A stretch of DNA of 38,172 bases. It comes from an uncultured bacterium. GTDB taxonomy: Bacteria; CSSED10-310; CAZUFC01. The stretch spans positions 16,301 through 54,472 of the forward strand of contig CAZUFC010000052.1 in the NCBI GenBank assembly GCA_964619725.1, written 5' to 3'. The position numbers and the translations under genes are program-made. Of the stretch, positions 4,739 to 38,172 are shown piece by piece (positions within the stretch are counted from its first letter, which is position 1; each line of letters starts with the position of its first letter). A model generated the notes under the pieces. The model saw only the letters and a list, made by a program, of their open reading frames with translations. It ran no database searches and was not told where the DNA came from.

Positions 4739-6127
4739 TCAGTCTGATGACCAGCCGAATGATACAGAGTCCCAGGCGCCCAGAATTTGGGAAAGGTTTT
4801 TTTCCAGCAGAGCGCTGTAGAAGAGTATGCCTGAGCCGGCGCTGGGTTCGTCGGGCCACTGGAATCGAAGTATTTCCATTTGGTATGAATCGATGCCCAG
4901 GAAGACGGGTTCGTAGCTGAAATCCTGTGTCCAGTCGGGATGCCAGAAATAGATGCCGTAGGCGTCTAACAGGACTACGAAGGGTTGATCGGCGTATATT
5001 GCAGGACCGGGATTGGAAAGTGTGGCGGAAAGCAGGAAAAGGTCGCCGGGCTGAAAGCTGTTTTCCGACAGATCGAGTTTGACGCCGAGCGGGTTTGGAG
5101 CGGGGGTAGCGGAATTTTCCGGCGTAGGCGTATAAGTGTATTCCGGCGTATGGGTAGGAGCTGTATCGGGTTCATAATGAAAACCCATATCCACAACGCC
5201 TGTATCGACGCCTCCGTCGGTCCTCGTCGACAGATCATCCAGGCAGATCGTGACGTCGCCTGCCGTAAAGCAGATTCCCGCAGCGTTTCCGCTGCCTGCA
5301 TCCGCACAGGGGCTGTCCTCGTCCTGTCCTGATGCCGTCTGACTCAGATAGTAGTCGCCGAAGGCGCCTTCGACGAACCTGGGATTGCCGTCTATATTGC
5401 CGGCGCCGGCATAACCGCCCTGGATATCCGAGTAGGTTATCTGCGGGTCCGAATCTTCCAGTTTCAGGTTTTGGGGCGTATTTTCCCAAACGATGACGTC
5501 CGTTAGGACCGGCGATGACAGATAAAAAGATATGCCTCCGCCGTTGCCGCTATTCGCTGAATTATCGGCTATCGTGCAGGATTGTATCGTGGGAGAGCAT
5601 TCCGAGCAATATATCCCCCCGCCGTCCATCGCAAAATTATTCGTTATCTGACAATTGGTCATCACTGAGGAAGATTTATGAAAATAAGCGCCGCCGCCTG
5701 AATACACCGCTGAATTGTTGTGTATAATGCAATTGGAAATTGTCGGCGATGATTCGAAACAATTTATGGCGCCTCCGTTGAATTGCGCCGCTGCATTTAT
5801 GATCGTGAAACCGATGATCTCCGTATTTTCGTTTTCATTACTGTCGCAAATAAAACCTGTCGATTCGCCTTCACAGTCGATTATGCAGGCTCCGGGCCCA
5901 TTGTCGGAAATCAGCAATATCTCTTTACCCCCGAAACTTACCGCACGGTTTCCCGTTCCCGTATATGTTCCGTCCTCAACAAGTACGGTATCGCCGTTTT
6001 CGGCTATTTCCACAGCAGCCTGTATAGTAACTTCATCGGTCGGCACTCGAATGATCGCTGCATTCAACCAACCGGCCGTCAAGAAAAATAAGGCTGCTGC
6101 GATTCCAAAGTATCTTAATATGTTCAT
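4739..6127 (-). CDS. Secreted right-handed parallel beta-helix (Pmp/pectin-lyase-like) protein with P/T linker and conserved C-terminal domain
   Basis: Signal peptide, TIQAAVEIAENGDTVLVEDGTY, repeated N-x-A-x-x-GG(A/G)I-x-C...SPTI-x-x-C motifs, and a TPEYTYTPTP linker. The terminal ~115 aa are homologous to the end of the 31568..34774 protein. Confidence 0.85.
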   Translation of the reverse strand: MNILRYFGIAAALFFLTAGWLNAAIIRVPTDEVTIQAAVEIAENGDTVLVEDGTYTGTGNRAVSFGGKEILLISDNGPGACIIDCEGESTGFICDSNENENTEIIGFTIINAAAQFNGGAINCFESSPTISNCIIHNNSAVYSGGGAYFHKSSSVMTNCQITNNFAMDGGGIYCSECSPTIQSCTIADNSANSGNGGGISFYLSSPVLTDVIVWENTPQNLKLEDSDPQITYSDIQGGYAGAGNIDGNPRFVEGAFGDYYLSQTASGQDEDSPCADAGSGNAAGICFTAGDVTICLDDLSTRTDGGVDTGVVDMGFHYEPDTAPTHTPEYTYTPTPENSATPAPNPLGVKLDLSENSFQPGDLFLLSATLSNPGPAIYADQPFVVLLDAYGIYFWHPDWTQDFSYEPVFLGIDSYQMEILRFQWPDEPSAGSGILFYSALLEKNLSQILGAWDSVSFGWSSD

Positions 6128-6236
6128 ATTCCGTGCCCCCTTTTTGTCGCTGAAAAATTTCACCGTACATTATTACCCTTTATGCGATGTAATGTAAAGC
6201 CGCTGCTGTTTTTGGACAAAAACCAGGTTATTGTTA

Positions 6237-7942: not shown

Positions 7943-8005
7943 TGAATGGATCGGGGGAATGCGTACGCTCGCTGAAAACAGTGAAACAGAACGTCGCATT
8001 TGATT

Positions 8006-10051
8006 ATGAAGCCTATAATAGGATTAGACATCGGTACAAGCAAAATCAGTGCAGCAGTATACCGGAACGGACGACTCAAGGTTATTCCAGATGAGGGAGG
8101 AGAAAACTCTTTTCCTATGGCGGCCGCCTTTGAGAAAAACGGACGGTTCGTCCTGGGCAACAAGGCTAAAAAGCAGCTTTTGATGAATGCTGAATACTCC
8201 ATCGTCAATTTTCTCCGTTTTTTAGCCCTGGACGAGAAAAAATTGAATGCCTGCGCCCATGAAAGGCTAATTAATTACAAACTTAGATACAATCCTGATG
8301 AAAATCGCGTGGAAGCTGCCGGAGCGGAAAAGAAATGGGTGGCTCTGACATATCTGATGGAGCGTTTGTTGGAAGAAGTTTATAAAAAAATTGAAAATGA
8401 CGTCGGCGAATATGAAGGAGAAGCAGTTTTATCCATTCCGGCAGGAATAGATTTCAACAAGAAGATATTGATCAAGGAGTGTGCGGAGAAGGCAGGGTTT
8501 AAAATAGTAGAGTATATTGAGAGTCCGTATGCTGCGGGGCTGGCGTATTGTCATAATAAACCCGAACCGCAGACGATCATCGTTTTTGATATGGGTGCGG
8601 GCAATACTAGCGTAGGCAGTTTTTCTCTGGAGAAGGGAAATGCGGTGGAGTTTATTGCAGCGGCCGGCAATGATGCATTGGGCGGTGATGACATTGACGA
8701 TTATGTCATAAAGTGGATGCTGGACAATATCAAGGAATACAAAGAAGAGCCGGGAGGATTGCCGGCTGATGCTTTACTGCGAATGCGGGAGGCAGCGGAA
8801 GAAACTAAGAGGGAGCTGTCATCAGTAAATAAAGCGGAGATAAATCTTCCTTATCTTTTTCCCGTAAAGAAGCATTTCTTGCATTTTCAGAAGTCATTAA
8901 CCAAACTTGATTTTGAATTACTGATAAAGAAACTGACAGCCGAGGCTTTGAAGACGATACAACGAGGATTAGGCGAAGGGCAGCTCATCAAGAAGGACAT
9001 TGAGACTGTGTTAATGACGGGCGGACAGAGTCGGATGCCGGTTCTGCAGGCGAGCATCGAGAATTTTTTCAAGAAGCAGCCTTATACGGGCGGAACCGCG
9101 AAAGAAATGTCAGCCATGGGAGCGGCGTTATTGGGTTTTAATATAGCATCGGGAGGGCAGGCGTTGAAGGTCAAACGCCGTTCGACGATTCTTCTGGACC
9201 GATTGCCTCCGGGCTTTATGATCAGTGATCGTTACCAGGTACTGTTTAAAATAGGCGGCGGCGGTTTCGGATATGTTTATAAGGTACGAGAGAAAAAAAC
9301 AGGAAAGGTTTTTGCTTTAAAGATACTCAAACCTGAGTATGAACGAGATGAAACGACACGCGAGAGGTTCCTGGAATCCGGGCGACGTACGCTGGGTTTT
9401 TCGCATCCGAACATCGTAACCACTGTAGATGTGATCTCTGAAGGCGCAATTGCGGGAATTCTCATGAAATATATTGAAGGAATCAGTCTCGAAAAATTCG
9501 TTGAAAAAGGGCATTTTGATGAGATGCCGCTGTATCGCCGTCTGGATATGCTCATAAGTGTTTTACGAGCGTTAATAGTTCTGAGAAACAGAAACATTTT
9601 TCACGGCGATCTGAAGCCTGAAAACGTGTTCGTCAATCATGAGCATGTGCCCATGCTGTTTGATTTCGAGCTTTTCCGCTTGAAATCGGAAAACGACGGT
9701 CAACGGATACAGGTTACCGGAACGCCTCGATATATGGCTCCCGAACACATTTCAGGAGAGAATGTTTTTGGCGAATGGAGCGAGATATATTCTCTGGGGT
9801 TAATCATGTACCGATTGTTTGCCGGTCGGTTTCCGAAAAAAGCGGACAACCCGAAAAAGGATTATCTGATCTTCGACTTCGGCTTTTCAAAAGCGGAAGA
9901 CCCGCAGAACGTTAATCCGTCCATTCCTGACGAGCTGGCAGGCATCATAAAAAAGAGCATACGTCGCAAACGCGACCAGCGTTTTCAGACTTTTGAGGAA
10001 CTGATGGAAGCGCTGGAGGCTCTGCAGAAGGATACAGCCATACAGGATTGA
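8006..10051 (+). CDS. Hsp70/DnaK-like nucleotide-binding domain fused to a Hanks-type Ser/Thr protein kinase
   Basis: N-terminal IIGLDIGTS, VFDMGAG, LGGDDID, AEETKRELS and TGGQSRMP (Hsp70 NBD). C-terminal IGGGGFGYVY, FALK, HGDLKPEN, DFE and GTPRYMAPE (kinase). There is no Hsp70 substrate-binding domain. Confidence 0.9.
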   Translation: MKPIIGLDIGTSKISAAVYRNGRLKVIPDEGGENSFPMAAAFEKNGRFVLGNKAKKQLLMNAEYSIVNFLRFLALDEKKLNACAHERLINYKLRYNPDENRVEAAGAEKKWVALTYLMERLLEEVYKKIENDVGEYEGEAVLSIPAGIDFNKKILIKECAEKAGFKIVEYIESPYAAGLAYCHNKPEPQTIIVFDMGAGNTSVGSFSLEKGNAVEFIAAAGNDALGGDDIDDYVIKWMLDNIKEYKEEPGGLPADALLRMREAAEETKRELSSVNKAEINLPYLFPVKKHFLHFQKSLTKLDFELLIKKLTAEALKTIQRGLGEGQLIKKDIETVLMTGGQSRMPVLQASIENFFKKQPYTGGTAKEMSAMGAALLGFNIASGGQALKVKRRSTILLDRLPPGFMISDRYQVLFKIGGGGFGYVYKVREKKTGKVFALKILKPEYERDETTRERFLESGRRTLGFSHPNIVTTVDVISEGAIAGILMKYIEGISLEKFVEKGHFDEMPLYRRLDMLISVLRALIVLRNRNIFHGDLKPENVFVNHEHVPMLFDFELFRLKSENDGQRIQVTGTPRYMAPEHISGENVFGEWSEIYSLGLIMYRLFAGRFPKKADNPKKDYLIFDFGFSKAEDPQNVNPSIPDELAGIIKKSIRRKRDQRFQTFEELMEALEALQKDTAIQD

Positions 10052-12789: not shown

Positions 12790-13719
12790 ATGAAGCAAAA
12801 GGGCATATTGATATTGGCGCTTGCATTGGGCGTCATTGCAGTCATACTTGTACAGGTATACATTCGAGACATTGAGAAGAAGCACGAGGTTGAGGATACG
12901 GTATCGGTTCTGGTTGCGGCGAAGAACATACCGGCCGGAACAGCGGTGACAGGGACGCAGATAACGACGGAGAAGGTGCCTCGCCAGTTTTTAAATCCCA
13001 ATGCGGTATTGCCGAAGGAGCTGGAATTGATATTGAATCAGACGACGTCTATTGATCTTCAGAAGGGTCAACAGATATTATGGACGGATTTCGTTTCTGA
13101 AAAGGAGACGGGACTGGCGACGGTGATAAAGGAAGGCGAACGGGCGTTGACTTTGGACGTGAACGATCGTACGGGAGTATCCGGATTATTGAAGCCGAAC
13201 GATCACGTGGACATAATCGGAACTTTCCAGGTTCCGAAAGAGGTAAAGATAGACGCCGGCGATCTGAGAAAATTTCAAGGCGACTTTTCTTATCAATTTG
13301 AGCAGGTGACGGTAACTTTGCTTCAAAACGTGACGGTGCTGGCGGTGGGAAAGTATATAGGTACGGAAGATTTCGGTCCGGGAGCGATGTTTCCTGCCGC
13401 ATCGGGAATGAGAGGTTCATTAGGCATGGACGCGGCAGCTCAAACCGCGGCCAAACGTCTGCAGGACAAAATGTCGTATCGAACAGTCACTGTGCTGGTT
13501 ACGCCGTTAGAGGCCGAATTGCTCGTGCATGCCATGCTTACGGGAGAAATTACTCTTGCTCTTCGTAATCCTGAGGACCTGATGACCGAACTCAAACTGC
13601 CCAACATCAAGTTCACTGACGTAGTGAAGTCCGAATTTGTGGAAGAGATTCAGCAGAAGAGGACTGAGCGAACCATTGAGATTTACAAGGGTCCGGGTCA
13701 AAAGAAGAGAAGAAGATAA
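12790..13719 (+). CDS. cpaB: Flp/Tad pilus assembly protein CpaB (RcpC)
   Basis: N-terminal TM helix, SAF domain (VLVAAKNIPAGT), GERALTLDV...GVSGLLKPNDHVDII, LLQNVTVLAV, VTVLVTPLEAELL and ITLALRNPED. Confidence 0.93.
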   Translation: MKQKGILILALALGVIAVILVQVYIRDIEKKHEVEDTVSVLVAAKNIPAGTAVTGTQITTEKVPRQFLNPNAVLPKELELILNQTTSIDLQKGQQILWTDFVSEKETGLATVIKEGERALTLDVNDRTGVSGLLKPNDHVDIIGTFQVPKEVKIDAGDLRKFQGDFSYQFEQVTVTLLQNVTVLAVGKYIGTEDFGPGAMFPAASGMRGSLGMDAAAQTAAKRLQDKMSYRTVTVLVTPLEAELLVHAMLTGEITLALRNPEDLMTELKLPNIKFTDVVKSEFVEEIQQKRTERTIEIYKGPGQKKRRR

Positions 13720-13795
13720 GTCATTATTTCATGAAGAAGCTTACAGGCGAATGAACAGAGGATTAATAAACTATTTTCGTCGGGAGGTTAAAGAC

Positions 13796-15103
13796 ATGGT
13801 TGGAAAGGGGACTTCTGTGAGAAGAACTGCATTAACAGCGACGGCCATAGCCGTCATGGGAATCGTTTTCTGCTGTTTTACGGCATCGGCGCAGGAAATG
13901 ATCACTCTGATAGTCGGCGAACAGCAGACTCTTGATGCCCGCGACACAGTAAGAGTAGCCGTAGGCGACCCCAACATAGCGGACGTGAAAGTGATAGCCG
14001 GGGGCCGGGAATTGCTTATAACGGGAATCAGTTCCGGGACCACCACCCTAACTATGTGGAACAATCGCAACGAGAAGACCACGTTGCAGATAAAAGTCAT
14101 CGCCAGGGACCCCAAGGAAGTGGCCCGTGAAGTTAGAGAACTGCTGGGCGACGTGGAAGGCATCTCGATCGTGGTAGTGGGGGAAAAGGTCGTTCTGGAC
14201 GGAGAAGTCTTCAGACAGAAGGACTTGGACAGGGCTGACAAAGTCGTTCAGATGTATGAACCCCAGTTGGTTTCTCTGTTGGAATACAACAAGGCTTATC
14301 TTGAAATGAAAAGAATGATCCAGGTGGAATTCAAGTTTTATGAAATTGATAAGAACAAAGCCACCCGTTTCGGCATCAATATGTCCGACCTTCTGAATCC
14401 TCAATCTCCTCTGATCAGCGCTCAGTATTCCATCAATTCCCAGTCCAATGAAATGACCGACAATTTGAATTCCGACAACAACATGGATACCGAAACCGAC
14501 ACAACCAGTCTGAACGTAAGCGTAACCAATGACTTCAATCCTCTCAGGATCGACTCGGAAGACGATAAAATAAGGCTGATGGAGGAACATCAGGCTGTGA
14601 CCAGAAGCGGCGAAAAGGTTTATTTCGTAGCGGGCGGCGAAGTGCCTATCGCGGTAGAGGGTACGGCCGGCTCTGCAGGTTATGTGGAATGGAAACAATA
14701 CGGGACCATAATCAATGCACAACCTGAAATTGACCGGATCAACAATATAATCCTGACTATTTCAGTCGAATCCAGTCAGTTGGATTGGGCTAATGCGGTC
14801 AGCGGATATCCGGCCATTAAATTGAACCGCAGCGACACTGTGGTCAATATGAAATCAGGACAAACCCTGTTGATGGGCGGAGTCTTCAGTACGGGTTCTT
14901 CAAGAAAATCAGACGGCATACCCGGTTTCAGCAAGATTCCTCTTCTCGGTTTCCTTTTCGGCGCCAAAGAATATACGAAAAACAGGCATGACGGCGTTCT
15001 GTTCATCACCCCCAGCATAATCAATCCCGTGGATCAACCCGGACAGAACCCCAGAATTCAGGCCGTCATCGACAGATTCGAAGAAAAGGACCTGATGCTC
15101 TGA
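13796..15103 (+). CDS. cpaC: Flp/Tad pilus secretin CpaC (RcpA)
   Basis: Signal peptide, RVAVGDPNIADV...GTTTLTMW N-domain, and secretin domain (FVAGGEVPI, GQTLLMGG, IPGFSKIPLLGFLFG, LFITPSII). ATG 13796 follows GGGAGG. Confidence 0.92.
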   Translation: MVGKGTSVRRTALTATAIAVMGIVFCCFTASAQEMITLIVGEQQTLDARDTVRVAVGDPNIADVKVIAGGRELLITGISSGTTTLTMWNNRNEKTTLQIKVIARDPKEVAREVRELLGDVEGISIVVVGEKVVLDGEVFRQKDLDRADKVVQMYEPQLVSLLEYNKAYLEMKRMIQVEFKFYEIDKNKATRFGINMSDLLNPQSPLISAQYSINSQSNEMTDNLNSDNNMDTETDTTSLNVSVTNDFNPLRIDSEDDKIRLMEEHQAVTRSGEKVYFVAGGEVPIAVEGTAGSAGYVEWKQYGTIINAQPEIDRINNIILTISVESSQLDWANAVSGYPAIKLNRSDTVVNMKSGQTLLMGGVFSTGSSRKSDGIPGFSKIPLLGFLFGAKEYTKNRHDGVLFITPSIINPVDQPGQNPRIQAVIDRFEEKDLML

Positions 15104-20006: not shown

Positions 20007-22286
20007 ATGGAGAGAAAAGAAACGATTTATCTGTTTTTGCTGATAGTATTGTTCAACGGATCGAATGTTTTAATGACCAGAGCGGTTGCCGGTTCTGTCT
20101 GGAGGGGCGGCAGCGGAGGATTCGATGCGCTTGCGGAGCGGGCGCCGCAATGGGCTGAGGATTCTGGAGAATTGCGTCGATACGGCAAGCGAATGCTGCG
20201 TGATCAGATCAATTTAATGGTGATAAGAACGACGGAAGCGGAAGAATCGGTCATCCGCGCATTGGACGAGGCCGGTTATGCTTACGAGGAGCATTATGAG
20301 CCTGACGACTGGACGGGATTGGATTTTTCATCATTTGACGTCGTATTAATCGCAATGCATGATGGCGGGATAGACCAGGATGACATTTCGTCAATTCGAA
20401 ACGAAGTGATTGATGCGGGCAAAAGAGTCATTTTCATCGGGGGATGTTCCACTCAGGATTTCGTAAACGCCGTCAATACGTCATTGCTTGGAGTCAGCAC
20501 GATCAGCTATGACTGGCATGCTTCGCCGGCGCCTCATTTCATCATAACGAATCAGGATCATCCCCTGGTTTCGGGTCTCGAATCGCCCCGCACCTTCAAC
20601 AATGCCTGGGCCTCGTCATATTGCATACGTATAACGGAACCGGAGCTGATTCAGGCGGCGGAGAACGGTGAAGGGGCTCCTGTTCTGATATACAAAGGGG
20701 ACTATGGAACGGGAGGCGATCTGATCTGGATCACGAACGATCCTGATGAAATCGTATGGGAGAACCAGCAGGATTTCGACGTATTGAAAAGGCTTATCGG
20801 CAACAGCCTGCAATTCGGGAATCAGGCTCCTCTATTGCTGCTGACGACTACTTCTTTAGAAGAATCAGTCGAAGACGGCTTGCAGAATTTAGGATTCGTT
20901 TACACGAAAGTTTTCGCAGAGGATTGGACGTTGACGGATTTTGAGGAGTACGAGGTAGTGATTGCGGCCATGGATGGAGGGGAAATCAGTGAAGCAAGCG
21001 TTCAGGCGGTAAGAGAGGATGTGATAGAACAGGGAAAGCGGCTTATTTTTATCGGCGGGACGTCTGTCGAAAGTTTCGTATTGGGGGTGAACGAATATTT
21101 AACGCTCGTGGATACTCAGAATTATAGCTGGAGCCTGCCGCCTGCAGATCAATTCCGTCTGACGAATGCTTCCCATTTTTTATCGGTGGACCTTCCGAAC
21201 ATATATAATTTCGAAAATTCCTTCGCCGGTATGTATCAAATAAGAATCAGGCAATATAATGTTCAGGAGGCTGCCAGAAACGGACATAACGAGATTTGTT
21301 TATATTATCAGTTGGGATTCTCCGGAGGCGGCGATTTTGTCTGGTTCGTCAATTCGCCTTTGAGTTATTATTGGGAAAATGAGGAGGACCGGGATATTTT
21401 AAAGCAGGTTCTGAAGAATTCGTTGTCGTGTTTGAACACAGGCGGAGGTTGCGACATAGCGCTTGTTTCCGATGAAGATCAGTTGAACACGTTGGAGCCT
21501 TTGCTGGACAATATGGGGATTACTTACGACCGATATAATGATAATGGCAATGAGACATTTACGGCCCAACCTGATGTGATGTCGAATTATGAAGTATGTA
21601 TCTGGTATCAGTATGACCGCGGAATATCAACGGATGAAAAAAACGTCATGGACGCCTGGGTCATGAACGGCGGACGTTTGCTGGTTACGGGTTTCGACAG
21701 TCTGGGAAGTCCGGATGATCTCTTGATGGCGCAAATCGTAAGGTCTGAGGAAACAGGCGACGGTCCGTTTGATCTGGCTTATACGGTTATTACATCAACT
21801 CATCCCATCATTAACGGGCCCTACGGTCAGTGGTCGGTTTCAACGGAGCTGAGAGCCGGACATTCCGACCATGATAAGGCGGTCCCGGACATTGCTGAAG
21901 GCGCCGTATCAGTAGCGGATTTCAGCGACGGGACCTCAAAAATAATGGCGACGGACTCAATCAGTCTCGGCGGTAAAGTAGTCTACTGGAACGGGAATTA
22001 CGAATTAAAGGATTGGACCAATTCCGGAACTCAGCCCGACCAGATTCAACTTCTCAAAAATACCCTGTTCTGGTTATGCCAGGCCCCGGAAACGCCTCTG
22101 CCTAGCGCCACCCCCACCTGGACCGTCACCAGCACGCCGGAGCCGACTTCCACACCCACGATTACGCCCACTCCTTTTCCTATTCCGTCGCTCAAAATCC
22201 CTGGATTCAGCATACTAATACTGCTCACAAGCCTTTTAATGCTCACGGGAACCTTGCGAAAGAACAGGAAAGAAAATGAGACTTGA
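20007..22286 (+). CDS. Secreted protein with three tandem GATase1-like (flavodoxin-like) domains, P/T linker and IPTL-CTERM-like anchor
   Basis: Signal peptide, two clearly homologous ~200-aa repeats (GKR(V/L)IFIGG, GGD..W..N.P...WEN..D.D.LK....NSL) and a third diverged one, a TPTWTVTSTPEPTSTPTITPTP linker, then IPSL, a TM helix and RKNRK. Confidence 0.8.
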   Translation: MERKETIYLFLLIVLFNGSNVLMTRAVAGSVWRGGSGGFDALAERAPQWAEDSGELRRYGKRMLRDQINLMVIRTTEAEESVIRALDEAGYAYEEHYEPDDWTGLDFSSFDVVLIAMHDGGIDQDDISSIRNEVIDAGKRVIFIGGCSTQDFVNAVNTSLLGVSTISYDWHASPAPHFIITNQDHPLVSGLESPRTFNNAWASSYCIRITEPELIQAAENGEGAPVLIYKGDYGTGGDLIWITNDPDEIVWENQQDFDVLKRLIGNSLQFGNQAPLLLLTTTSLEESVEDGLQNLGFVYTKVFAEDWTLTDFEEYEVVIAAMDGGEISEASVQAVREDVIEQGKRLIFIGGTSVESFVLGVNEYLTLVDTQNYSWSLPPADQFRLTNASHFLSVDLPNIYNFENSFAGMYQIRIRQYNVQEAARNGHNEICLYYQLGFSGGGDFVWFVNSPLSYYWENEEDRDILKQVLKNSLSCLNTGGGCDIALVSDEDQLNTLEPLLDNMGITYDRYNDNGNETFTAQPDVMSNYEVCIWYQYDRGISTDEKNVMDAWVMNGGRLLVTGFDSLGSPDDLLMAQIVRSEETGDGPFDLAYTVITSTHPIINGPYGQWSVSTELRAGHSDHDKAVPDIAEGAVSVADFSDGTSKIMATDSISLGGKVVYWNGNYELKDWTNSGTQPDQIQLLKNTLFWLCQAPETPLPSATPTWTVTSTPEPTSTPTITPTPFPIPSLKIPGFSILILLTSLLMLTGTLRKNRKENET

Positions 22287-25952: not shown

Positions 25953-28900
25953 TCAATAGACTTCGAAGGAACGATCGAATTCAGGATAATGCACATCGTT
26001 ATAATACAGCTTAACGATACCCGGATCGCCGACAGAAGCGCCGCAATCGGCAATGGGTATAAGTTTCGTGACCACTTTTTCAGAGCTGGGCGTCAGGTTG
26101 AAAGGCACTTCGCGGCAAACTTCTCCGTTGACGCTCCATACCACCAGAAGTCGATCTCCGTCATTCGGGGCGCTGAGGAAAACCGTGGATTTGAATCCGC
26201 CTGTATCGTTTTCAGGTTCCAGTTGGTGGTCTGTGATATGAGATTCTTCGATACTGATGTTTATTTCATCGTAAGCTGACGTCCCGTTGGCATCATGCAC
26301 GGTAATGCGTGCCGTATAGACGCCCATTGAATTATAGGTATGACAGGGGTTTTTTTGCGTTGAATCGGTATCGATTCCGTCGGCCGTATTGAAGTCCCAG
26401 GAATAATCGTACGGGGGGACTCCTCCGGTAACCTCGGCATCGAAGCATATTTCTGAGCCGGGAAGTCCGTGGGTGGGATCGGCTGAAGCGACCACCACGA
26501 GTTCGACGACTCCGACGGTAACGGTCAGGCAGCATACTTTAGATGCGCCCGTGGAATCGTCGACAGTCACGCAAGCCTGGAAACTGCCTCCATCGGTGTA
26601 TGTATGCGAAGGATTAGGCTCAGAGCTTCCTGCGCTGCCGTCTCCGAAGTTCCAGGAGTAGGAATAAGGAGGCGTTCCGCAACTTACGGAAGCGGAAAAA
26701 TCAACTTCAAGCGGCGCATCTCCGCTACGAGGTTCCCCATAGCAATATACCTCCATTCCCCCTGTGCAGGGAGTCACATTAACCGTAACGGAACTTGATG
26801 CTGCGACGCCCAGGCAGTCAGTGACGATAACCTGAACCTGGTACGAACCGTATTGAGCGTATGAATGATTGACGGACGTTCCTTGAGCCGAAGTTCCGTC
26901 TCCGAAATTCCAGACGGTGTTGAAAGGCGATACTCCACCTTGAACGGTTCGGGAAAAATGAACCGACTGACCGACGTCCACGCTGGGCGGCGATGCCTGA
27001 CAGGATACCGTCAGGGGATGTTGAATAACATTCAGATAGGGCCAGATTTCACTGACGTTGCCGTCCTGGTCGGCAGCTCTCAGTTCAAGAACGTAGTCAT
27101 CAGGAGGAACCATGCCCGCTTCAAGCGGTACTTCCATCACATAAGTCGAATCGCTGATCTTAGGAAGATAGGTACCGGTGGGTTCCCGGTTGAAAAACAG
27201 CTCTACATTTTGCACATCTGATGCTCCCTGCGGGTCGCCGACGATGGCCCAGATTTTCAGCGTTCCCTCTCCTTCATCGTCCAGTTCGGTGTCCCATTGT
27301 CCTGCAGCAAGAATATAGGGACTGTTTTGCGTTACATCTTCAGGTCCTGCGCCTATTTCGCCGGCGCCCTCATATTGACTGAATTCTTCTGTTTCTTTTC
27401 CAATATGGAATGCGGGCCATAAGTCTCCCACATTTCCCCAGGAATCCTCTGCTCCGATCTGAATCAGATAGGCATCTCCGGGAAAACAGGATGAGTCGGG
27501 TATGGAAAAGTTCAATTCATATACGCCTGAGCCCGAATCGTTCATTTTCAATCCTGTAGGCTCGCCGTTATAGTATAATTCCATGCCGGTAACTCCGGGG
27601 TCTTCGGTATATCCGGCGAGAGTGATATCAATGGCATCATCCGAGAAGGCCCGTGTGGTGAGATAACCTCCCAGCCAGATGGAAGGGCCTTTATTGTCGA
27701 TGTGGAAGGTAACGGATTCCAGCGGTTGAGAATAGCGTTCGCATTGGTCTTGGGCCCTTACGTCCAGTTGATGAACGCCTTCGTCCAGGTCTTCCAGGGT
27801 CAGGGACCATTGTACTGTTCCTTCAGCGGTAAGCCAATCGCCGCCGTCCAGCCGACCTTCCACTTTTATCAGTTCAGGTCCGTTGGAAGCGGCTACGCCG
27901 GCTGCGACGAGTTCGGTACCGCTATAAACGGCATCGGGTACGGGTGAGGTTATATCGACATAAGGCAGTTGCGTATTGCTGAAGAAATTTACTGAAGCGG
28001 TATTGCCCTGATGGTCGAAAGCATCGAATGCTCTGACTTTCAACGTTTTAAGTCCTATGGTCGGTTCAGTCCAGTCAAAGGTCCATTCTTCTGTTCCCTG
28101 GGCGGGCATCCAGGTCTCGCCGTTGTCCAGGGAAACCTCGACCAGCTCGACGCCGATCCCTTCATCTGCGGAAACGCCTTCAAACGTATGCGATTCTCCG
28201 TCCAGACATCCTTCGTCTTCAGGAACAGTAATTTCTGTCGCCGGTCCTTCGTCGTCAATGGTTACTGTAATGGAAAAACCTTCATCCTCCAGATTCTCCG
28301 CATAATCTTCCGCTCTCGACGTAAAGGTGAATGTCCCGGCTGAAGCGCCCGGCCATTCATAACTCCAGGTACCCTCATCCTCATCTGTTTCTGCAACATA
28401 TGTGTCCTGATTTATGTCGACGAATACTCTGTAAACCCCACATCCGTACTGACCGTCTTCGAAAGTTCCCTGAATCGTGAGCGCTCCCGGCGGTATATAA
28501 GACCCGTCTTCAGGGAAAGTTATTTCAGACGAGGGAGCGCTCATGTCGAACAGCCAGTCGTCGACGGTTTTTTCAGCGATATTGCCCGACATGTCTTGCG
28601 CGGAAAAATATATACTGTAATAAGCGCCGTCTGCGAGAACGTCGTCCGTCGTCGTATCGCCGTCGTTGTTCAGGTCCAACCCGTTCAATGAATGAATGTT
28701 CATGCCCTGGTCTGCAGAGATCACTTCCGTAAGTTCATGGGGCGAATTGGGGTCCTCATTCCCTCCCGTTCTTTGCATTATCATAAGAGGATTATCGCAC
28801 GGTTCGCTTAAGATGTACATTAAATCGATGTACTGGCCTGAACATGAATCATTGGCGGGTTTCAACCACCTGATGCGGGGTAGAGACCTGACGCTGAAGG

Positions 28901-31445
28901 TATCTGTTTGAACGCTTATGGGCAGGCGTTGGAAATCCGCTGCAGTTCTGACGTTTTCCGGATACGCTGTGATGCGGACGAGCATCTTGTCGCTTGAAGC
29001 CGTGGCCGCATCCGCATCGATGTCCCAATGGAAATAATGTACCGTTCCTTGAGGCGATGCTGCTAAACCCGTGAATCCTTCGCCCGTACCGGTCCAGGTG
29101 CAGGGATGCCAATATCCTCCCAGCGAGGTCGAATGCTCAATTTCTATTGTGCATGTCTGTCCTGGTTCGCCGAAAAGATAATACTCCAGATAAAAAGGCT
29201 GATGCTGGTCCAGTTCGGGCGTCGTAATTAAAGCATATGGAGGATTGGAAACCAGCAAAGGCGCCGGCATATAACGATTTTCATAGACCGCGTTTTTAGT
29301 GTTGTAACTCCCTTCGATAAGATCGAAGTCGCCGTCGCCGTCTGTATCCGCTGCGGTCAGTGCGGTAGTTTTGTAATCTTCAGCGCTTATCCAGTCCGGT
29401 TCGTCATAAAATGTACCGTTGTGATTCAGATAAAACAGGTTTTCCGATTCATAAGCGCCTAAAAACATGTCTATATATCCGTCGTTGTTGACGTCTTTAA
29501 GACAAATATCGCGTATGTCGGATTCAGGATTAAAAGCGACAGACGCCTCGGTCTCCAGGACTCCGTTGATGTTCCGGTACAACCGGACCCCTTCGGCGGC
29601 CCCGGCCCAAATGACATCTTCCCATCCGTCACCGTCAAAATCTGCTGTCCCGACGGCCCTGGTCACTCCTGATTCGTCGCAGAACCAATCCGTATCGCTG
29701 TTGAGTTTGCCTTCGTAATTAAGAAAAACGCTTACCGCTCCGGGTTCGTCCGTTTCAGTGATCGAACCCGCCGTCAGATCGGGATGACCGTCATTGTTTA
29801 TATCGCCGAATGACAGGCTCTTGTAATGTTTTTCCTGGCCGATCGTTTCCCAGCGCCAACGTCCGAAATCGCCTATAATATTGAAGTTGTAGCGAAGCTC
29901 ACGATCTTTTCCGGCCAGCACGATATCGGGATAACGATCAGAATCTATGTCGAACAGGCATATGTCTTCAGCAGGGTAGTCGACTTCGTCCCACCACACG
30001 GGAAGCGCTGAAAGCGAGCCTTCATCGTTTCCGTATATGCTGAGCATTCCTTCGATTCCTGTAAAAAGAAGCTCCGGGTATCCGTCCCTGAACAGATCGG
30101 CGGCAGCGACAGACGGCGATGCCGTGTTGAAGGGAACCGCGGAACTCCAGGACGGCAGGTATTCGATACCCTCAAAATTGAAATAAGCGGTATGCCGTTG
30201 ATCGTTATTGGCGAATACCGGTTCGGGATATCCGTCCAGAAAAAGATCGGCAGCCGTCGCATCCATCGTTAAATTAAAATAATCCGATTGCCAGACCGGC
30301 TCAGCCGACAATAAGTCCATAACGTTGCGCAGACAGCCGGCCTTGTAACCGTATACCCCAACGGCCAAGTCCAGGTCCGCATCCCCGTCAGCGTCCGCGG
30401 CAGCGATGCATGTTGATCCGGAAAAGAATGTTTGCCAGTCAGGCGTATCGCTGAAGTCTGTACCGTCGAACAGATAAAATTTCACTACGCCGTCTTCTGT
30501 TCCCGTAATAAGGTCCAGGTCACCGTCGCTGTCGATGTCCGCTAAATCTACCGACATAGTGTCTTCCGCTGCAGGTTCCGACCAGAAAAGCGTGGGAACG
30601 CCATCCTGGTTTTTTATCACGCGAGTCGGATTGACGCTTGTTCCGGCTATGGCGAAGTCCGTGTAACCGTCGCCGTCAAAATCGCCTGCGGTCACTTCAT
30701 TGGATTGATCGTCAATCCCTGAGCTCCAACTGTAATTGACGTTCAATGCCCCCTGCCCGTTATTGTAGTAAATTAAATCAGGAGAACCGTCATTGACCGT
30801 GATCAGGTCGAGCCAACCGTCGTTATCGAAATCACACCACGCTACATCCGTCGTTGGGACGTTCTGAATGCACTGCCATTGAGGCGTCGTTTCAAATGTA
30901 CCGCCGTTATTGATGAAAAGAGAGTTACGAGCATTTTCATTCCCAAAGACAATGTCCAGGTCGCCGTCATTGTCCACATCGCCGAGAGCTGTCGAAGTCG
31001 TTTCGTTGAAAGTTTCCGATACCCAGCAATCTCCCGGTTCGGTAAAACTGCACAAGACCCCATCCTTGTTCCAGTAAATGACGTTGGCTCCCGTATAATT
31101 GCAGACGACCAGATCGCCGTCCCCGTCTCCGTCCAGGTCCGCAGCCGCCACATCATGCGTCGCCAGCGGCAGGTCAGTTACCCACGTAGGCGAAAATACG
31201 CCGCCGATGTTTTCAAAAACGATGTCCGTTCCTTCATAAGCGCCTACAGCCAGGTCCAGGTCCCAGTCACCGTCAAAGTCTGCCCAGAAGGCCGATACCG
31301 ACCACATCGCTCCAGGACTCTCCCAGAAAAAATCCGTTTCATAATTAACCTCAGCGGCTGCAGGCTGCAGCATTCCCGCTATGAAAATCGCCGGCAAAAG
31401 GAACCGCAAAAGAAACGTTTTATTTGCAAAAACAATTATTTTCAT
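25953..31445 (-). CDS. Giant secreted FG-GAP/VCBS-repeat, Ig-like and PKD-domain surface protein (1830 aa)
   Basis: Signal peptide, about 14 D-x-D-x-DG-x-x-DL repeats, several Ig-like domains (VEVSLDNGETW..A.GT..W), two copies of an unknown domain ending WP(A/Y)(F/L), and three PKD domains (WNFGDG, HTY). GGGAGG SD. Confidence 0.9.
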   Translation of the reverse strand: MKIIVFANKTFLLRFLLPAIFIAGMLQPAAAEVNYETDFFWESPGAMWSVSAFWADFDGDWDLDLAVGAYEGTDIVFENIGGVFSPTWVTDLPLATHDVAAADLDGDGDGDLVVCNYTGANVIYWNKDGVLCSFTEPGDCWVSETFNETTSTALGDVDNDGDLDIVFGNENARNSLFINNGGTFETTPQWQCIQNVPTTDVAWCDFDNDGWLDLITVNDGSPDLIYYNNGQGALNVNYSWSSGIDDQSNEVTAGDFDGDGYTDFAIAGTSVNPTRVIKNQDGVPTLFWSEPAAEDTMSVDLADIDSDGDLDLITGTEDGVVKFYLFDGTDFSDTPDWQTFFSGSTCIAAADADGDADLDLAVGVYGYKAGCLRNVMDLLSAEPVWQSDYFNLTMDATAADLFLDGYPEPVFANNDQRHTAYFNFEGIEYLPSWSSAVPFNTASPSVAAADLFRDGYPELLFTGIEGMLSIYGNDEGSLSALPVWWDEVDYPAEDICLFDIDSDRYPDIVLAGKDRELRYNFNIIGDFGRWRWETIGQEKHYKSLSFGDINNDGHPDLTAGSITETDEPGAVSVFLNYEGKLNSDTDWFCDESGVTRAVGTADFDGDGWEDVIWAGAAEGVRLYRNINGVLETEASVAFNPESDIRDICLKDVNNDGYIDMFLGAYESENLFYLNHNGTFYDEPDWISAEDYKTTALTAADTDGDGDFDLIEGSYNTKNAVYENRYMPAPLLVSNPPYALITTPELDQHQPFYLEYYLFGEPGQTCTIEIEHSTSLGGYWHPCTWTGTGEGFTGLAASPQGTVHYFHWDIDADAATASSDKMLVRITAYPENVRTAADFQRLPISVQTDTFSVRSLPRIRWLKPANDSCSGQYIDLMYILSEPCDNPLMIMQRTGGNEDPNSPHELTEVISADQGMNIHSLNGLDLNNDGDTTTDDVLADGAYYSIYFSAQDMSGNIAEKTVDDWLFDMSAPSSEITFPEDGSYIPPGALTIQGTFEDGQYGCGVYRVFVDINQDTYVAETDEDEGTWSYEWPGASAGTFTFTSRAEDYAENLEDEGFSITVTIDDEGPATEITVPEDEGCLDGESHTFEGVSADEGIGVELVEVSLDNGETWMPAQGTEEWTFDWTEPTIGLKTLKVRAFDAFDHQGNTASVNFFSNTQLPYVDITSPVPDAVYSGTELVAAGVAASNGPELIKVEGRLDGGDWLTAEGTVQWSLTLEDLDEGVHQLDVRAQDQCERYSQPLESVTFHIDNKGPSIWLGGYLTTRAFSDDAIDITLAGYTEDPGVTGMELYYNGEPTGLKMNDSGSGVYELNFSIPDSSCFPGDAYLIQIGAEDSWGNVGDLWPAFHIGKETEEFSQYEGAGEIGAGPEDVTQNSPYILAAGQWDTELDDEGEGTLKIWAIVGDPQGASDVQNVELFFNREPTGTYLPKISDSTYVMEVPLEAGMVPPDDYVLELRAADQDGNVSEIWPYLNVIQHPLTVSCQASPPSVDVGQSVHFSRTVQGGVSPFNTVWNFGDGTSAQGTSVNHSYAQYGSYQVQVIVTDCLGVAASSSVTVNVTPCTGGMEVYCYGEPRSGDAPLEVDFSASVSCGTPPYSYSWNFGDGSAGSSEPNPSHTYTDGGSFQACVTVDDSTGASKVCCLTVTVGVVELVVVASADPTHGLPGSEICFDAEVTGGVPPYDYSWDFNTADGIDTDSTQKNPCHTYNSMGVYTARITVHDANGTSAYDEINISIEESHITDHQLEPENDTGGFKSTVFLSAPNDGDRLLVVWSVNGEVCREVPFNLTPSSEKVVTKLIPIADCGASVGDPGIVKLYYNDVHYPEFDRSFEVY

Positions 31446-31567
31446 GAAGCATGACCTCCCGATTGTATCCTTCTAATTTTTATCGGAATATGATGCTCAT
31501 GTCAATTGGTCCTTTACTTCAAACCTTCCATGAAATAAAATCAAGGAGGCGGAAAGGAGCTGCATCC

Positions 31568-34500
31568 ATGTTAATGAAATACAAGAAGATAATACTGGCG
31601 GCGATACCCGTGCTGATTTTATCGGCAGCGGTCCCGGAATGTTTCGGTGAGGCAGCCTGGTTATGGCACGGCGGCAATATTGATCCCCGTTATCCCACGC
31701 AGTCTCATGATACGTTGATACGAGTAAAGATCGGTTATCAGTATTTTATAGATAATGTCGCGATTTACCTGACTTACGACGGCACAGAACCCCAGGGCGC
31801 TTACGGGGAACCTTTTATCGGAGAGGTGATACCGATGAGCTGGGATTATACGGAGTGGGATCAGGATGCAGAGTTATGGGCTGACTGGTGGAGCGGCATA
31901 GTCCCCGCTGCTGCCGGTCATGAAATCGGAACGGCAGTCAATTATAAAATAGGCGCCTGGCACAGCGGAGGGGGAGCGGAAAGATTTGCGGACAATTATG
32001 CGGATAATTCATACGAAGCAGACGTGTTTTCCTTCAGAATATGCGGAGAAGTTCAGCAAGCTTTGACGGAAGAAGAGGTCATTATAGAGGGAACGGTTTA
32101 TATTGAGGGAGTAACGGACGAGCCGGGACCTGCCGCCGGACTTGATGTGGAGATATGGACGAATTACGGCGAGGAGGGCGTGACGGACTGGCGCGGGATT
32201 CAGATGTCCTATTGCGAGGATGTGGGGGAATCCGAAAGATATTCGGTTGAACTGACGCCCGGTACCGCAGGCATTTTTAAATACCTGGTCCGATATCGGC
32301 TGGACCTGGGTGAATGGCAGTACCAGGGCGATCCCGATAATGAATTATCCATGTGTCGCCTTATCGTCAATCCTGTCTGGCTCAAAGACAAGGTTTTTTA
32401 TGAAGTGTTTCCGCGGGTGCATAACGCAGAGGATGTAAACGGCGACGGATATCTTTCCAATGATGAGTTCGGCGGTTTCAAAAACGTTCTGAACGACCTG
32501 GACCGGTTGGAGGAACTGGGTGTCGGCGTTTTATGGCTTATGCCCATTCATCCTTTGAGCACGAATCCCGAACACATTAAAAGCACGGACGGGATGTTCG
32601 GCAGTCCCTATGCGCCGAAAGATTACCTGGCCGTGAATCCGGATTACGGCACAGAAGAGGATTTGCATGAGCTCGTGGATGCTGCGCATGCACGCGAGAT
32701 GAAAGTTTTCACAGGTTTCGTTCCCAATCACCTTTCGCCTGACAATGTTCTTCTTAATCCCTTCAATCCGCCGGAAAACGGCGGTTATCATCCGGAGTGG
32801 TTCGAGCAGGATGAATTCGGCGACCCCCGTCCCGACCTGCCCGAATGGTCGGATACGGTAGCGTTAAATTATGATTGCAATGATCAGGAGAATATGAGGG
32901 CATTTGTGGTTTCCGCGCTGGCTCATTGGCTGGATGAATTCGATATAGACGGTTATCGCTGCGATATGGCCTATTTTCAACCCCTGGATTTCTGGACCGA
33001 TGCTTTCGAAACCTTGCGGGAAAACAGACCCGATTTTGCCTTTCTGGCTGAAGCCTATGATCTGGAATACGATCTGGAAAGAGCCGGTTTCGGAGCGGTA
33101 TACGATCATACTTTCTACCGCTCAGTGTTTCACGAGTTGCGAAACGGTTCCATGGATGCCGATGGTTTAAGAAGCAGACTCTTGAATATGGTCGATAATC
33201 ACGCCCGGGGATTCCTCCCCTTCCGATATATCGATAATCACGACGAAGAAAGGGCAGCAGCCGCCTTCGGAGACGCCAACAAGCCGGTTACCGCCTTGAT
33301 CATGACCATGAGGGGCGCTCCCATGCTCTACTCCGGCCAGGAAGCGGCATTAACGGAAAGAATTCCGTTATTCAGGGGATGGAACGACGTGGAACTTTAT
33401 CCCTACCTTGATTTTGAAAACGATCCGGACTTTACCGAATGGATGAAAACGCTTATCCATTTCAGAAACGGGAATCCTGCCCTGAGACGAGGTGAAGAAT
33501 ACCTGTTGCCGTCATCATCGAATCACATTTTCGCCCTGCTGCGCAGGTTCCAGAATAAAAGCGTGCTTGTCGGATGCAACCTGGACGTCTCTAACGGTTT
33601 GCCCCGTTCAGGAAACGTCCAGATTCCCGAACAATTCAATCTCGAAACCGGCATTGTATACTCGCTGCAGGATATATTTACTCTGGAAAAAGATTACGTC
33701 CTGGGCCAAGAATTCAACTCTTATTATTTCCAATTGCCCGAAAACGGGGTGCAGGTCATGGATATCAATGAACTCTGCGAATGGGGGGGCGACGTAAACG
33801 ATGACGGAGCGGTTGACGATAAAGATGATATGCTGATCCTGCAGCAGGTTTGCGGCTTGTTCGAGCTTGAAGAAACGGAAAACTGTCGCGGGGATTATAA
33901 CGTCTCGGGCGAGGCTGATATTGCCGATATCATTGAAAAATATGAGCCGGCTGGTACAGCCCCGGAAAATGTTGAATTAATGATGAACGATGTCCAGGCG
34001 ATGCCCGGTGAAACTGTTACCGTTATTGTGACATTGGATTCCGCAGGCGTTGCCGGCGGAGTCGTTCAAATTGAGGCTTCGCCGGCGGATATCGAACCGG
34101 TTTCTTGGCTGCCGGGTGAAACTTTGACGGAAGCTGTCGGCGCTTCCGGCATCGATCCCTGTCCGCCGGATAGAAACTGCAATACCCCTGAACCTGCCGC
34201 CCTTTCCGTAGCGCAGTTCGTTCATTCCCCTACGGACGGGGAACAACAAGACTGGTTCCATATGCAATGGGCTGTTCCGACAGATGCTATTCCGGGGACG
34301 GAATTTATACTCGACGGAGAAACCGTTATGTATGGCCCGAACGGGAATCCCATTCCTTCGGCTCACATCGGGCCGGGGAGCATCCTGGTTACGGGAGGTC
34401 CGAATTGCACTGAAACGGGCGTTACGCTGTCCATGCCCGCCGAATATTTCAGTCCCGGAGACGATTGCCGGCTGGATGCATTTATTTGCAATATGGAAGG

Positions 34501-34774
34501 CCAAACCCTGGAAAACTGCATCTTTTTCTGCCTGCTTGATGTTTACGGCGCTTACTGGTTTTATCCCTCTTGGTCTGCCGGCCTGGACGGCGTTCTGCTG
34601 GATACCCTGCCGCCCGGTCAGACCGATATGAACCTTATCTCGCCTTTCCAATGGCCCGAAATTACAGACTCTGCGGAAGGCTTGCACTTTTACGGCGCCC
34701 TGGTCTTGCCGAACCTTTCTGACTTGATTGGAAAACTTGGAATCTGGGAATTCGGTTACGGCGCCGACGATTAG
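31568..34774 (+). CDS. Secreted GH13 alpha-amylase-family enzyme with N-terminal Ig/CBM-like domains, dockerin, cohesin-like domain and conserved C-terminal domain
   Basis: Signal peptide, LWLMPIHP, GSPYAPKDY, FVPNH, DGYRCDMA (nucleophile D), LAEAY (acid/base E), YIDNHDE and GAPMLYSGQE; dockerin GDVNDDGAVD...GDYNVSGEADIAD. ATG 31568 follows AAGGAG. Confidence 0.92.
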   Translation: MLMKYKKIILAAIPVLILSAAVPECFGEAAWLWHGGNIDPRYPTQSHDTLIRVKIGYQYFIDNVAIYLTYDGTEPQGAYGEPFIGEVIPMSWDYTEWDQDAELWADWWSGIVPAAAGHEIGTAVNYKIGAWHSGGGAERFADNYADNSYEADVFSFRICGEVQQALTEEEVIIEGTVYIEGVTDEPGPAAGLDVEIWTNYGEEGVTDWRGIQMSYCEDVGESERYSVELTPGTAGIFKYLVRYRLDLGEWQYQGDPDNELSMCRLIVNPVWLKDKVFYEVFPRVHNAEDVNGDGYLSNDEFGGFKNVLNDLDRLEELGVGVLWLMPIHPLSTNPEHIKSTDGMFGSPYAPKDYLAVNPDYGTEEDLHELVDAAHAREMKVFTGFVPNHLSPDNVLLNPFNPPENGGYHPEWFEQDEFGDPRPDLPEWSDTVALNYDCNDQENMRAFVVSALAHWLDEFDIDGYRCDMAYFQPLDFWTDAFETLRENRPDFAFLAEAYDLEYDLERAGFGAVYDHTFYRSVFHELRNGSMDADGLRSRLLNMVDNHARGFLPFRYIDNHDEERAAAAFGDANKPVTALIMTMRGAPMLYSGQEAALTERIPLFRGWNDVELYPYLDFENDPDFTEWMKTLIHFRNGNPALRRGEEYLLPSSSNHIFALLRRFQNKSVLVGCNLDVSNGLPRSGNVQIPEQFNLETGIVYSLQDIFTLEKDYVLGQEFNSYYFQLPENGVQVMDINELCEWGGDVNDDGAVDDKDDMLILQQVCGLFELEETENCRGDYNVSGEADIADIIEKYEPAGTAPENVELMMNDVQAMPGETVTVIVTLDSAGVAGGVVQIEASPADIEPVSWLPGETLTEAVGASGIDPCPPDRNCNTPEPAALSVAQFVHSPTDGEQQDWFHMQWAVPTDAIPGTEFILDGETVMYGPNGNPIPSAHIGPGSILVTGGPNCTETGVTLSMPAEYFSPGDDCRLDAFICNMEGQTLENCIFFCLLDVYGAYWFYPSWSAGLDGVLLDTLPPGQTDMNLISPFQWPEITDSAEGLHFYGALVLPNLSDLIGKLGIWEFGYGADD

Positions 34775-36397: not shown

Positions 36398-38172
<1,775 letters not shown>

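Follow-up and report, generated by a model that had tools for sequence, protein, structure and literature searches.

The last 118 residues of a GH13 (alpha-amylase family) protein, encoded on a 38,172-nucleotide stretch of DNA from an uncultured bacterium (contig CAZUFC010000052.1 of assembly GCA_964619725.1), belong to an independently folding Ig-like β-sandwich domain family with a typical length of ~113 amino acids (aa) for which Pfam, NCBIfam and the PDB gave no matching family. We call the whole stretch the window and give coordinates as window positions unless another contig is named. In the window's own 9.17-Mb assembly (G000), the domain closes a large and varied set of proteins, and on close paralogues its place is taken by a transmembrane tail of the sorting-signal type. 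We see about an even chance that the domain acts as a cargo-independent C-terminal tag for exported proteins that serves their retention at the cell surface. A profile search found two copies within the window, on the following features:

31451..34774, + strand: GH13 (alpha-amylase family) gene bearing copy 2, 1107 aa (open reading frame, ORF; Pfam Alpha-amylase)
34418..34771, + strand: C-terminal β-sandwich domain (the putative tag), copy 2, 118 aa (ORF translation, homology, family hidden Markov model (HMM), AlphaFold2 model)
4739..6163, - strand: gene for a putatively secreted parallel-β-helix protein bearing copy 1, 474 aa (ORF; weak β-helix matches)
4742..5086, - strand: C-terminal β-sandwich domain, copy 1, 115 aa (homology, family HMM)
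5087..5173, - strand: Pro/Thr-rich linker of ~29 aa, ...EPDTAPTHTPEYTYTPTPENSATPAPNPL, between the β-helix cargo and copy 1 (translation)

Copy 2 reads GVTLSMPAEYFSPGD...FGYGADD and is followed directly by its stop codon (34772-34774), and copy 1 is likewise followed by a stop codon at 4739-4741. BLASTP of the two whole proteins aligned GH13 residues 990-1106 with β-helix residues 360-474, with 38 identities over 126 columns (30%, 55.5 bits, E = 5e-12), a similarity far above chance. When the two domains were aligned alone with MAFFT, their identity was 36%. The homology of 34418..34774 to 4739..5086, proposed earlier in a sequence-only reading of this DNA, is thereby borne out. An HMM built from the family members in the genome recovered the ORF bearing copy 2 (contig C52, + strand) with E = 1.5e-36, and on the extracted loci it matched copy 2 with E = 6.4e-39 and copy 1 with E = 1.2e-36.

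The catalytic domain of the GH13 protein lies well above threshold (PF00128, E = 1.4e-26, 94.2 bits, cut-off 22); the NCBIfam alpha-amylase and cyclomaltodextrinase models match the same ORF below their cut-offs, and no equivalog model reaches its cut-off. The longest ORF opens at 31451, but the ATG at 31568 is the likelier start, with a signal-peptide-like segment (MLMKYKKIILAAIPVLILSAAVPECFG) downstream of it, and a home-made heuristic detected an N-terminal hydrophobic segment in the protein. The β-helix ORF gives weak matches to NosD, para_beta_helix and Chlam_PMP, together with a precomputed match to PF22842, a Pel9A-like β-helix. Judged by eye, residues ~778-989 of the GH13 protein (33782-34417, + strand) contain two motifs of the calcium-loop type, DVNDDGAVDDKD and DYNVSGEADIAD, with a dockerin-like look, and after them, before the C-terminal domain, a stretch that appears β-rich; the region also has a cohesin-like look. 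Pfam returned no match to the dockerin-like stretch at E ≤ 1, and a single-sequence AlphaFold prediction of residues 755-989 was of low confidence (pLDDT 31.8).

A family of C-terminal domains on varied cargo

A profile made from the two window sequences and run against the assembly matched at 150 of 150 scored places (254 candidates). Translated in six frames, the assembly contains 22,513 stop-to-stop ORFs with a length of 90 aa or more. An HMM iterated on these to convergence identified 218 domains in 217 ORFs; the distance from the end of the domain to the stop codon is 5 aa or less for 203 of the 218 copies and 10 aa or less for 206. The census that the sequence-only reading had suggested as a check on the domain thus returns a family whose members lie almost entirely at the extreme C-terminus. 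Clustering of the last 130 residues of the 4,330 ORFs of at least 250 aa likewise returned this family as the largest in the genome (206 members); the second-largest C-terminal family, which is TPR-like, has 56. Median pairwise identity among the copies is 28%, yet profile positions N24, L39, P49, W51, F76, W78 and P79 are kept in 85-97% of the 218 copies, which argues for a shared constraint beyond folding.

Five of the 218 copies are clearly internal or N-terminal. Among them are proteins in which the domain comes straight after the signal peptide and is followed by a long middle region and an FGE-sulfatase domain, and proteins in which it is placed between two FGE-sulfatase domains. In two ORFs with a non-C-terminal copy (G000:C153:3826-6570 and G000:C179:522-2945), the proteins end in FGE-sulfatase-type (PorK/GldK-like) domains, which we assigned by eye.

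We sampled 60 of the 208 complete ORFs with a C-terminal copy at random and scanned their cargo with Pfam at E ≤ 1e-5. At least one Pfam family was found in 42 of the 60 and none in the other 18, and more than 25 unrelated families are represented. Peptidases include S8 (three ORFs), C25 with its propeptide (five ORFs), S15, C11, C13, M14 and C39-like enzymes, and glycoside hydrolases include GH13, GH18 and GH114. Other enzymes are phospholipase D-like (PLD) proteins, AhpC/TSA redoxins, metallophosphatases and members of the endonuclease/exonuclease/phosphatase family, and the remaining cargo comprises right-handed β-helices, FG-GAP/ASPIC and Kelch repeats, lamin-tail domains (LTD) and CBM96. 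None of the best Pfam stretches listed for the 60 ORFs overlaps the C-terminal domain. From the two window copies, the earlier reading had proposed a role independent of cargo, and this breadth in the sample, with the domain present on 217 ORFs of one genome, bears that independence out strongly.

The usual architecture of these proteins is a signal peptide, the cargo, a Pro/Thr linker and the domain. In 130 of 200 copies, the Pro+Thr content of the 40 aa upstream of the domain reaches 35% or more; the median for this segment is 45%, versus 12.6% in the cargo. A strict home-made rule called signal-peptide-like N-termini in 164 of the 217 tagged ORFs and in 249 of 800 ORFs picked at random; a loose one called them in 184 of 217 and in 291 of 600, respectively. 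A lipobox-like motif is present in 9 of the 184 ORFs that have a signal-peptide-like N-terminus.

A profile search of 1.84 billion cluster representatives returned 2,322 proteins at E ≤ 1e-3, of which 1,775 also pass E ≤ 1e-10. Among the best 150 of these representatives, 24 of which come from G000, the domain ends no more than 15 residues from the C-terminus in 145. Across 14 species genomes of the same phylum, the domain was found in 11 (2.6-9.2 Mb), with 57 to more than 150 matches each. No other genome belongs to the class of G000, so the domain must occur in two classes or more. Outside the phylum, one of 67 sampled genomes gave a single weak match (E = 4e-8). On this sampling the domain is restricted to one bacterial phylum, a deep-branching one; RpoB, searched against the genome contigs, shows at most ~60-65% identity to many phyla.

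Exchange with a transmembrane tail

A second type of C-terminus in G000 speaks to what the domain might do. In at least 105 ORFs we identified a C-terminus in which a Pro/Thr linker leads to a P[IV]P[AST] motif, followed by a hydrophobic helix (~17-20 residues) and then a basic tail; together these make up a classic three-part C-terminal sorting signal. Giant proteins, the longest of 8,482 aa, are among them. The window contains one such gene, given for context:

20007..22286, + strand: gene bearing the alternative tail at ~22152-22283 (Pro/Thr linker, PIPS, hydrophobic helix, RKNRK)

The alternative-tail profile matches C52:38452-38568, which corresponds to window positions 22152-22268. Against NCBIfam this tail scored below threshold throughout, with matches to IPTL-CTERM, Heimdall-CTERM, PEF-CTERM and midcut-by-XrtH, and the PEP-CTERM model (PF07589) matched nothing, the controls included. 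The P[IV]P[AST]-CTERM signal appears to be undescribed. All 14 phylum genomes contain a short exosortase/archaeosortase-family gene (190 aa); the G000 gene most resembles the models ArtB and XrtH, without reaching the cut-off of either, and adjoins one transmembrane-tail target (L194, G000:C134:11000-17000).

The two C-termini are found on related proteins. When we compared 204 domain-tagged cargos with the cargo of transmembrane-tail proteins, 73 matched at E ≤ 1e-15, 50 of them over at least half of the cargo, and the best pairs of paralogues are 55-68% identical over 836-1045 aa. Not one of the 217 tagged ORFs carries both tails by our tail rule. Close paralogues therefore differ mainly in which tail comes after the Pro/Thr stalk, and this exchange is the strongest argument that the β-sandwich serves the purpose of an anchor or sorting signal. 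For the GH13 cargo itself there are too few orthologues in the phylum to compare tails, with matches beyond G000 only in genomes G009 and G012. Divergent from the GH13 gene lies a gene for an 1830-aa surface-type protein with FG-GAP, Big and PKD domains (25953-31445, - strand); the longest ORFs of the two start 6 bp apart, and the FG-GAP protein carries neither tag.

We infer the following model from these architectures. The proteins would be exported across the inner membrane by the Sec system through an N-terminal signal peptide, as our heuristics suggest. The C-terminal domain, usually on a flexible Pro/Thr stalk, would then bind a shared component of the cell envelope non-covalently, so that hydrolases, adhesin-like repeats and redox enzymes are retained at the surface, and it may also mark proteins for passage across the outer membrane. 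The sequence-only reading had suggested a role in export or anchoring, which would fit both the order of signal peptide, cargo, linker and domain and the exosortase-type anchor that stands in the domain's place on paralogues. Three features make a module that binds non-covalently more likely than a signal for translocation alone: the Pro/Thr stalk, the replacement by membrane anchors on paralogues, and the few copies at N-terminal or internal positions. If this model is correct, one small domain would flag much of the surface and secreted proteome of an uncultured phylum, amounting to 217 proteins in this genome, many of them degradative enzymes. It could then be used as a computational marker for the exoproteome of these organisms, and as a handle to find unknown anchoring or secretion machinery in outer-membrane bacteria that lack a type IX secretion system (T9SS). 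It would also give, next to T9SS, another case in nature of a folded domain at the C-terminus that serves as an address whatever the cargo.

Predicted fold and comparison with known C-terminal signals

AlphaFold2, given an alignment of 21 paralogues, predicts a confident eight-stranded β-sandwich (mean pLDDT 93.2, pTM 0.83) that is all-β with no helix. The best Foldseek matches in the PDB are RhoGDI (E ~1e-4, TM 0.44-0.55) and the CARDB domain 3idu (TM 0.60). An exhaustive structure search with VIA reached a top score of Z 9.4; unrelated Ig-like domains were numerous at Z 7-9, which the program itself treats as background, a typical best Z being 7-8. CARDB (PF07705; 3idu) and the E-set protein RhoGDI are the closest solved folds, at 7-9% sequence identity, with 3idu at Z 8.7 and 7-8% identity; the CARDB fold score is not clearly above the Ig-like background, and Pfam reported no CARDB match among the 21 members at E ≤ 10.

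Sequence databases returned no relative with a name. Neither window copy matched Pfam or NCBIfam at E ≤ 1, and across the 21 members Pfam at E ≤ 10 gave only two chance-level matches, each to a single member (MG4, E = 0.062; DUF6684, E = 0.16). A profile search of PDB sequences found nothing better than E = 0.29, in a single match. The ESM Atlas returned only unnamed clusters, with recognition below the tool's own mark; a word-index search for homologues of the domain region returned only the window's own protein, and a pattern search for related loci gave 40 matches, of which 0 were confirmed. Since the domain is missing from Pfam and NCBIfam, proteins that carry it currently end in an unannotated region. 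The sequence-only reading had named a carbohydrate-binding or other known accessory module at variable positions as what would overturn it; we found no match to a known module and a near-constant position at the C-terminus. None of the abstracts found in the literature gives an account of such a domain, although the search was not targeted by lineage name and does not establish that the domain is not in print.

A close functional parallel is with T9SS. The T9SS C-terminal domain (CTD) of Bacteroidota and the FCB group (type A, PF18962 / TIGR04183; type B, TIGR04131) is a cargo-independent C-terminal β-sandwich of ~80-110 aa that occurs tens to hundreds of times per genome (PMC8545088, PMC12618676 and PMC9143113). 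The domain described here resembles it in being a C-terminal β-sandwich on putatively Sec-exported proteins, among them peptidases that include the C25 gingipain family, glycoside hydrolases and adhesin-like repeats, and it shares the T9SS-like traits of extreme C-terminal position, signal-peptide-like N-termini and varied cargo. It differs in being longer (113 aa), in usually following a Pro/Thr stalk, in occasionally lying N-terminally or internally, and in showing neither sequence nor profile similarity to T9SS CTDs.

We compared the family with T9SS in several ways. The CTD models PF18962, TIGR04183 and TIGR04131 did not match the domain, either in the two window copies at E ≤ 1 or, for Pfam, in the 21 members at E ≤ 10. 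PF18962 matched nothing in G000, and in the phylum it matched only in G009 (11 matches) and G006 (one match). The 11 matches in G009 sit on contigs of 3-6 kb (such as C274, C513 and C433) in a 69%-complete bin, and may represent contamination from a T9SS organism or a second system. An hhalign comparison of the domain profile with 10 PF18962-positive type-A domains from G009 and G006 gave a probability of 0.73%, and among the listed Foldseek and VIA matches, all of them generic Ig-like sandwiches, there was no solved T9SS CTD. PorV (PF19572) was found in none of five domain-bearing genomes, while the control, Bacteroides thetaiotaomicron, was matched. Models for SprA/Sov and GldM/PorM (PF14349, TIGR04189 and TIGR03517) gave no match, but the control genomes were also blank, which makes this result uninformative. 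By every test run, then, the domain is not a T9SS CTD, though it seems to be used in a similar way.

Other sorting signals offer further comparisons. CTERM signals span ~25-35 aa, in which a short motif leads into a transmembrane helix and then a basic tail, and they are cut by an intramembrane enzyme. Set against the exosortase/archaeosortase CTERM concept, as outlined in PMC1569441 and 10.1101/2023.06.07.544157, the domain occupies the same place after a Pro/Thr linker as PEP-CTERM, PGF-CTERM and IPTL-CTERM signals, and it replaces the CTERM signal on paralogues in this genome. Unlike them it is folded and soluble and lacks a hydrophobic helix, and none of the 217 tagged ORFs passes the tail rule. 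SLH, GW and LysM modules bind the wall or surface of monoderm bacteria non-covalently. In our proposed model the domain would resemble these modules in being terminal and cargo-independent and in coexisting with a covalent sorting pathway; its fold and sequence are unrelated to theirs, and its host has an outer membrane.

The evidence for that membrane is that Omp85/BamA-family genes are present in 14 of 14 phylum genomes. Each of these genomes has 2-7 Omp85-family matches, several of them in frames of ~940-1010 aa, plus one of BamA size (~800 aa). Secretins number seven in G000 and at least three in each of the five genomes searched. In the window, an RcpC/CpaB-like gene (12790..13719, + strand) is followed by a gene for a secretin with a pilus N-terminal region (13637..15103, + strand), and the pair (12790-15103) is part of a Tad/Flp-type pilus or secretion cluster.

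Alternative explanations and genomic context

Several observations weigh against a surface-retention tag. The predicted fold is a generic Ig-like sandwich and as such says nothing of function. No candidate for a receptor, translocon or processing enzyme emerged from this analysis, and the recurrent neighbours of tagged genes are other surface proteins, kinases and the like, with no partner candidate among them. The non-C-terminal copies imply that a free C-terminus is not strictly required; they suit a binding module more than a signal for secretion alone, and they would also suit an ordinary accessory domain. In 5 of the best 150 cluster representatives the domain ends more than 15 aa from the C-terminus, and 3 of the 14 phylum genomes (families f5-f7, 87-96% complete) are without it. 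Of the two window copies, copy 1 has a Pro/Thr linker and the GH13 copy does not. The signal-peptide heuristics are crude, the loose rule flagging 291 of 600 random ORFs. Finally, the one PorV-like barrel, a TraF_2/PorV-superfamily protein that we considered as a partner, was rejected, as its family occurs in 13 of the 14 phylum genomes, those without the domain among them; searches for other T9SS parts found none beside it. The G000 barrel (L193:2721-3950, - strand, on G000:C68) is a 409-aa outer-membrane protein that the TraF_2 model matches with E = 1.9e-16; its similarity to PorV/PorQ and PorP/SprF stays below threshold (PorV_fam, 45.8 bits against a cut-off of 90; PorP_SprF, marginal). 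A complex prediction of the barrel with the domain scored 0.00 and gave no answer, speaking neither for nor against binding.

An explanation close to T9SS is that the domain is a secretion signal for an outer-membrane translocon, removed or exchanged after passage as a T9SS CTD is, with different parts. The cargo logic of T9SS is indeed matched, with Sec-type N-termini, five C25 peptidases with propeptides among the 60 sampled ORFs and a C-terminal β-sandwich of ~100 aa. The cells have an outer membrane to cross, and the tagged share of the proteome is estimated at 2-5%, from counts of 57 to more than 150 in genomes of 2.6-9.2 Mb at an assumed ~1,000 genes per Mb. Because canonical T9SS parts were not found, such cargo would lack a known dedicated route. 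We nevertheless regard this explanation as unlikely, given that no translocon candidate was found, that several secretins could export folded proteins without a C-terminal signal, that the Pro/Thr stalks and the exchange with membrane anchors point to tethering, and that five copies are not C-terminal. A domain that acts as a carbohydrate- or polymer-binding module (CBM), targeting enzymes to an external substrate, would account for the invariant aromatics on an Ig-like sandwich (two W positions, each conserved in 88% of copies, an F in 91%, and a WP motif), for weak fold matches that include a porphyran-binding CBM (8wae, Z 7.3) and the O-antigen-binding domain of Wzt, and for the Pro/Thr linkers, which are typical of CBM-bearing enzymes; some of the cargo, moreover, consists of glycoside hydrolases. 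Most of it, however, is not carbohydrate-active (peptidases, AhpC redoxins, PLD proteins, nucleases, Kelch and LTD proteins), and this makes substrate targeting improbable. A single conserved domain on 217 proteins, nearly always at the extreme C-terminus, is also not what several substrate-matched families would look like, no Pfam CBM family matches it, and it is exchanged with membrane anchors.

Cellulosome-like docking onto large surface scaffolds is a further explanation, in which the domain would be a protein-protein docking module. The giant transmembrane-tail surface proteins are possible scaffolds, the hydrolase-rich cargo resembles cellulosomal enzymes, and the calcium-loop motifs of the GH13 protein were noted by eye. 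We think this has a small chance of being correct, as we found no receptor module, nothing recurrent beside the tagged genes supplies one, and the dockerin-like stretch goes unrecognised by Pfam at the threshold given above. We consider it very unlikely that the domain is a folding aid or pro-domain of the PPC type, or an inert Ig spacer spread by shuffling: C-terminal β-sandwiches of secreted proteases are known to be cleaved off, and many of the cargo proteins are peptidases, but the cargo extends far beyond peptidases, individual positions are conserved, and the domain and the membrane anchor are mutually exclusive. Beyond the surface-retention tag itself, we tentatively suggest that the domain could be the address signal of an undescribed protein-sorting pathway, a functional counterpart of T9SS built from unrelated parts, which would operate alongside P[IV]P[AST]-CTERM, bring ~60 to more than 200 proteins per cell onto or across the outer membrane and hold them there; this broader proposal is possible but somewhat doubtful.

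The commonest neighbour family of tagged genes is a 28-member family of collagen-like secreted proteins. At the end of the window, a gene at 36398-38161 (- strand) encodes a protein in which collagen triple-helix repeats are combined with a Peptidase_S74 (endosialidase chaperone) domain. Elsewhere in the window, a single ORF at 8000-10051 (+ strand) encodes an Hsp70-like ATPase domain (residues 6-402) and, fused behind it, a Ser/Thr protein kinase domain (residues 412-669).

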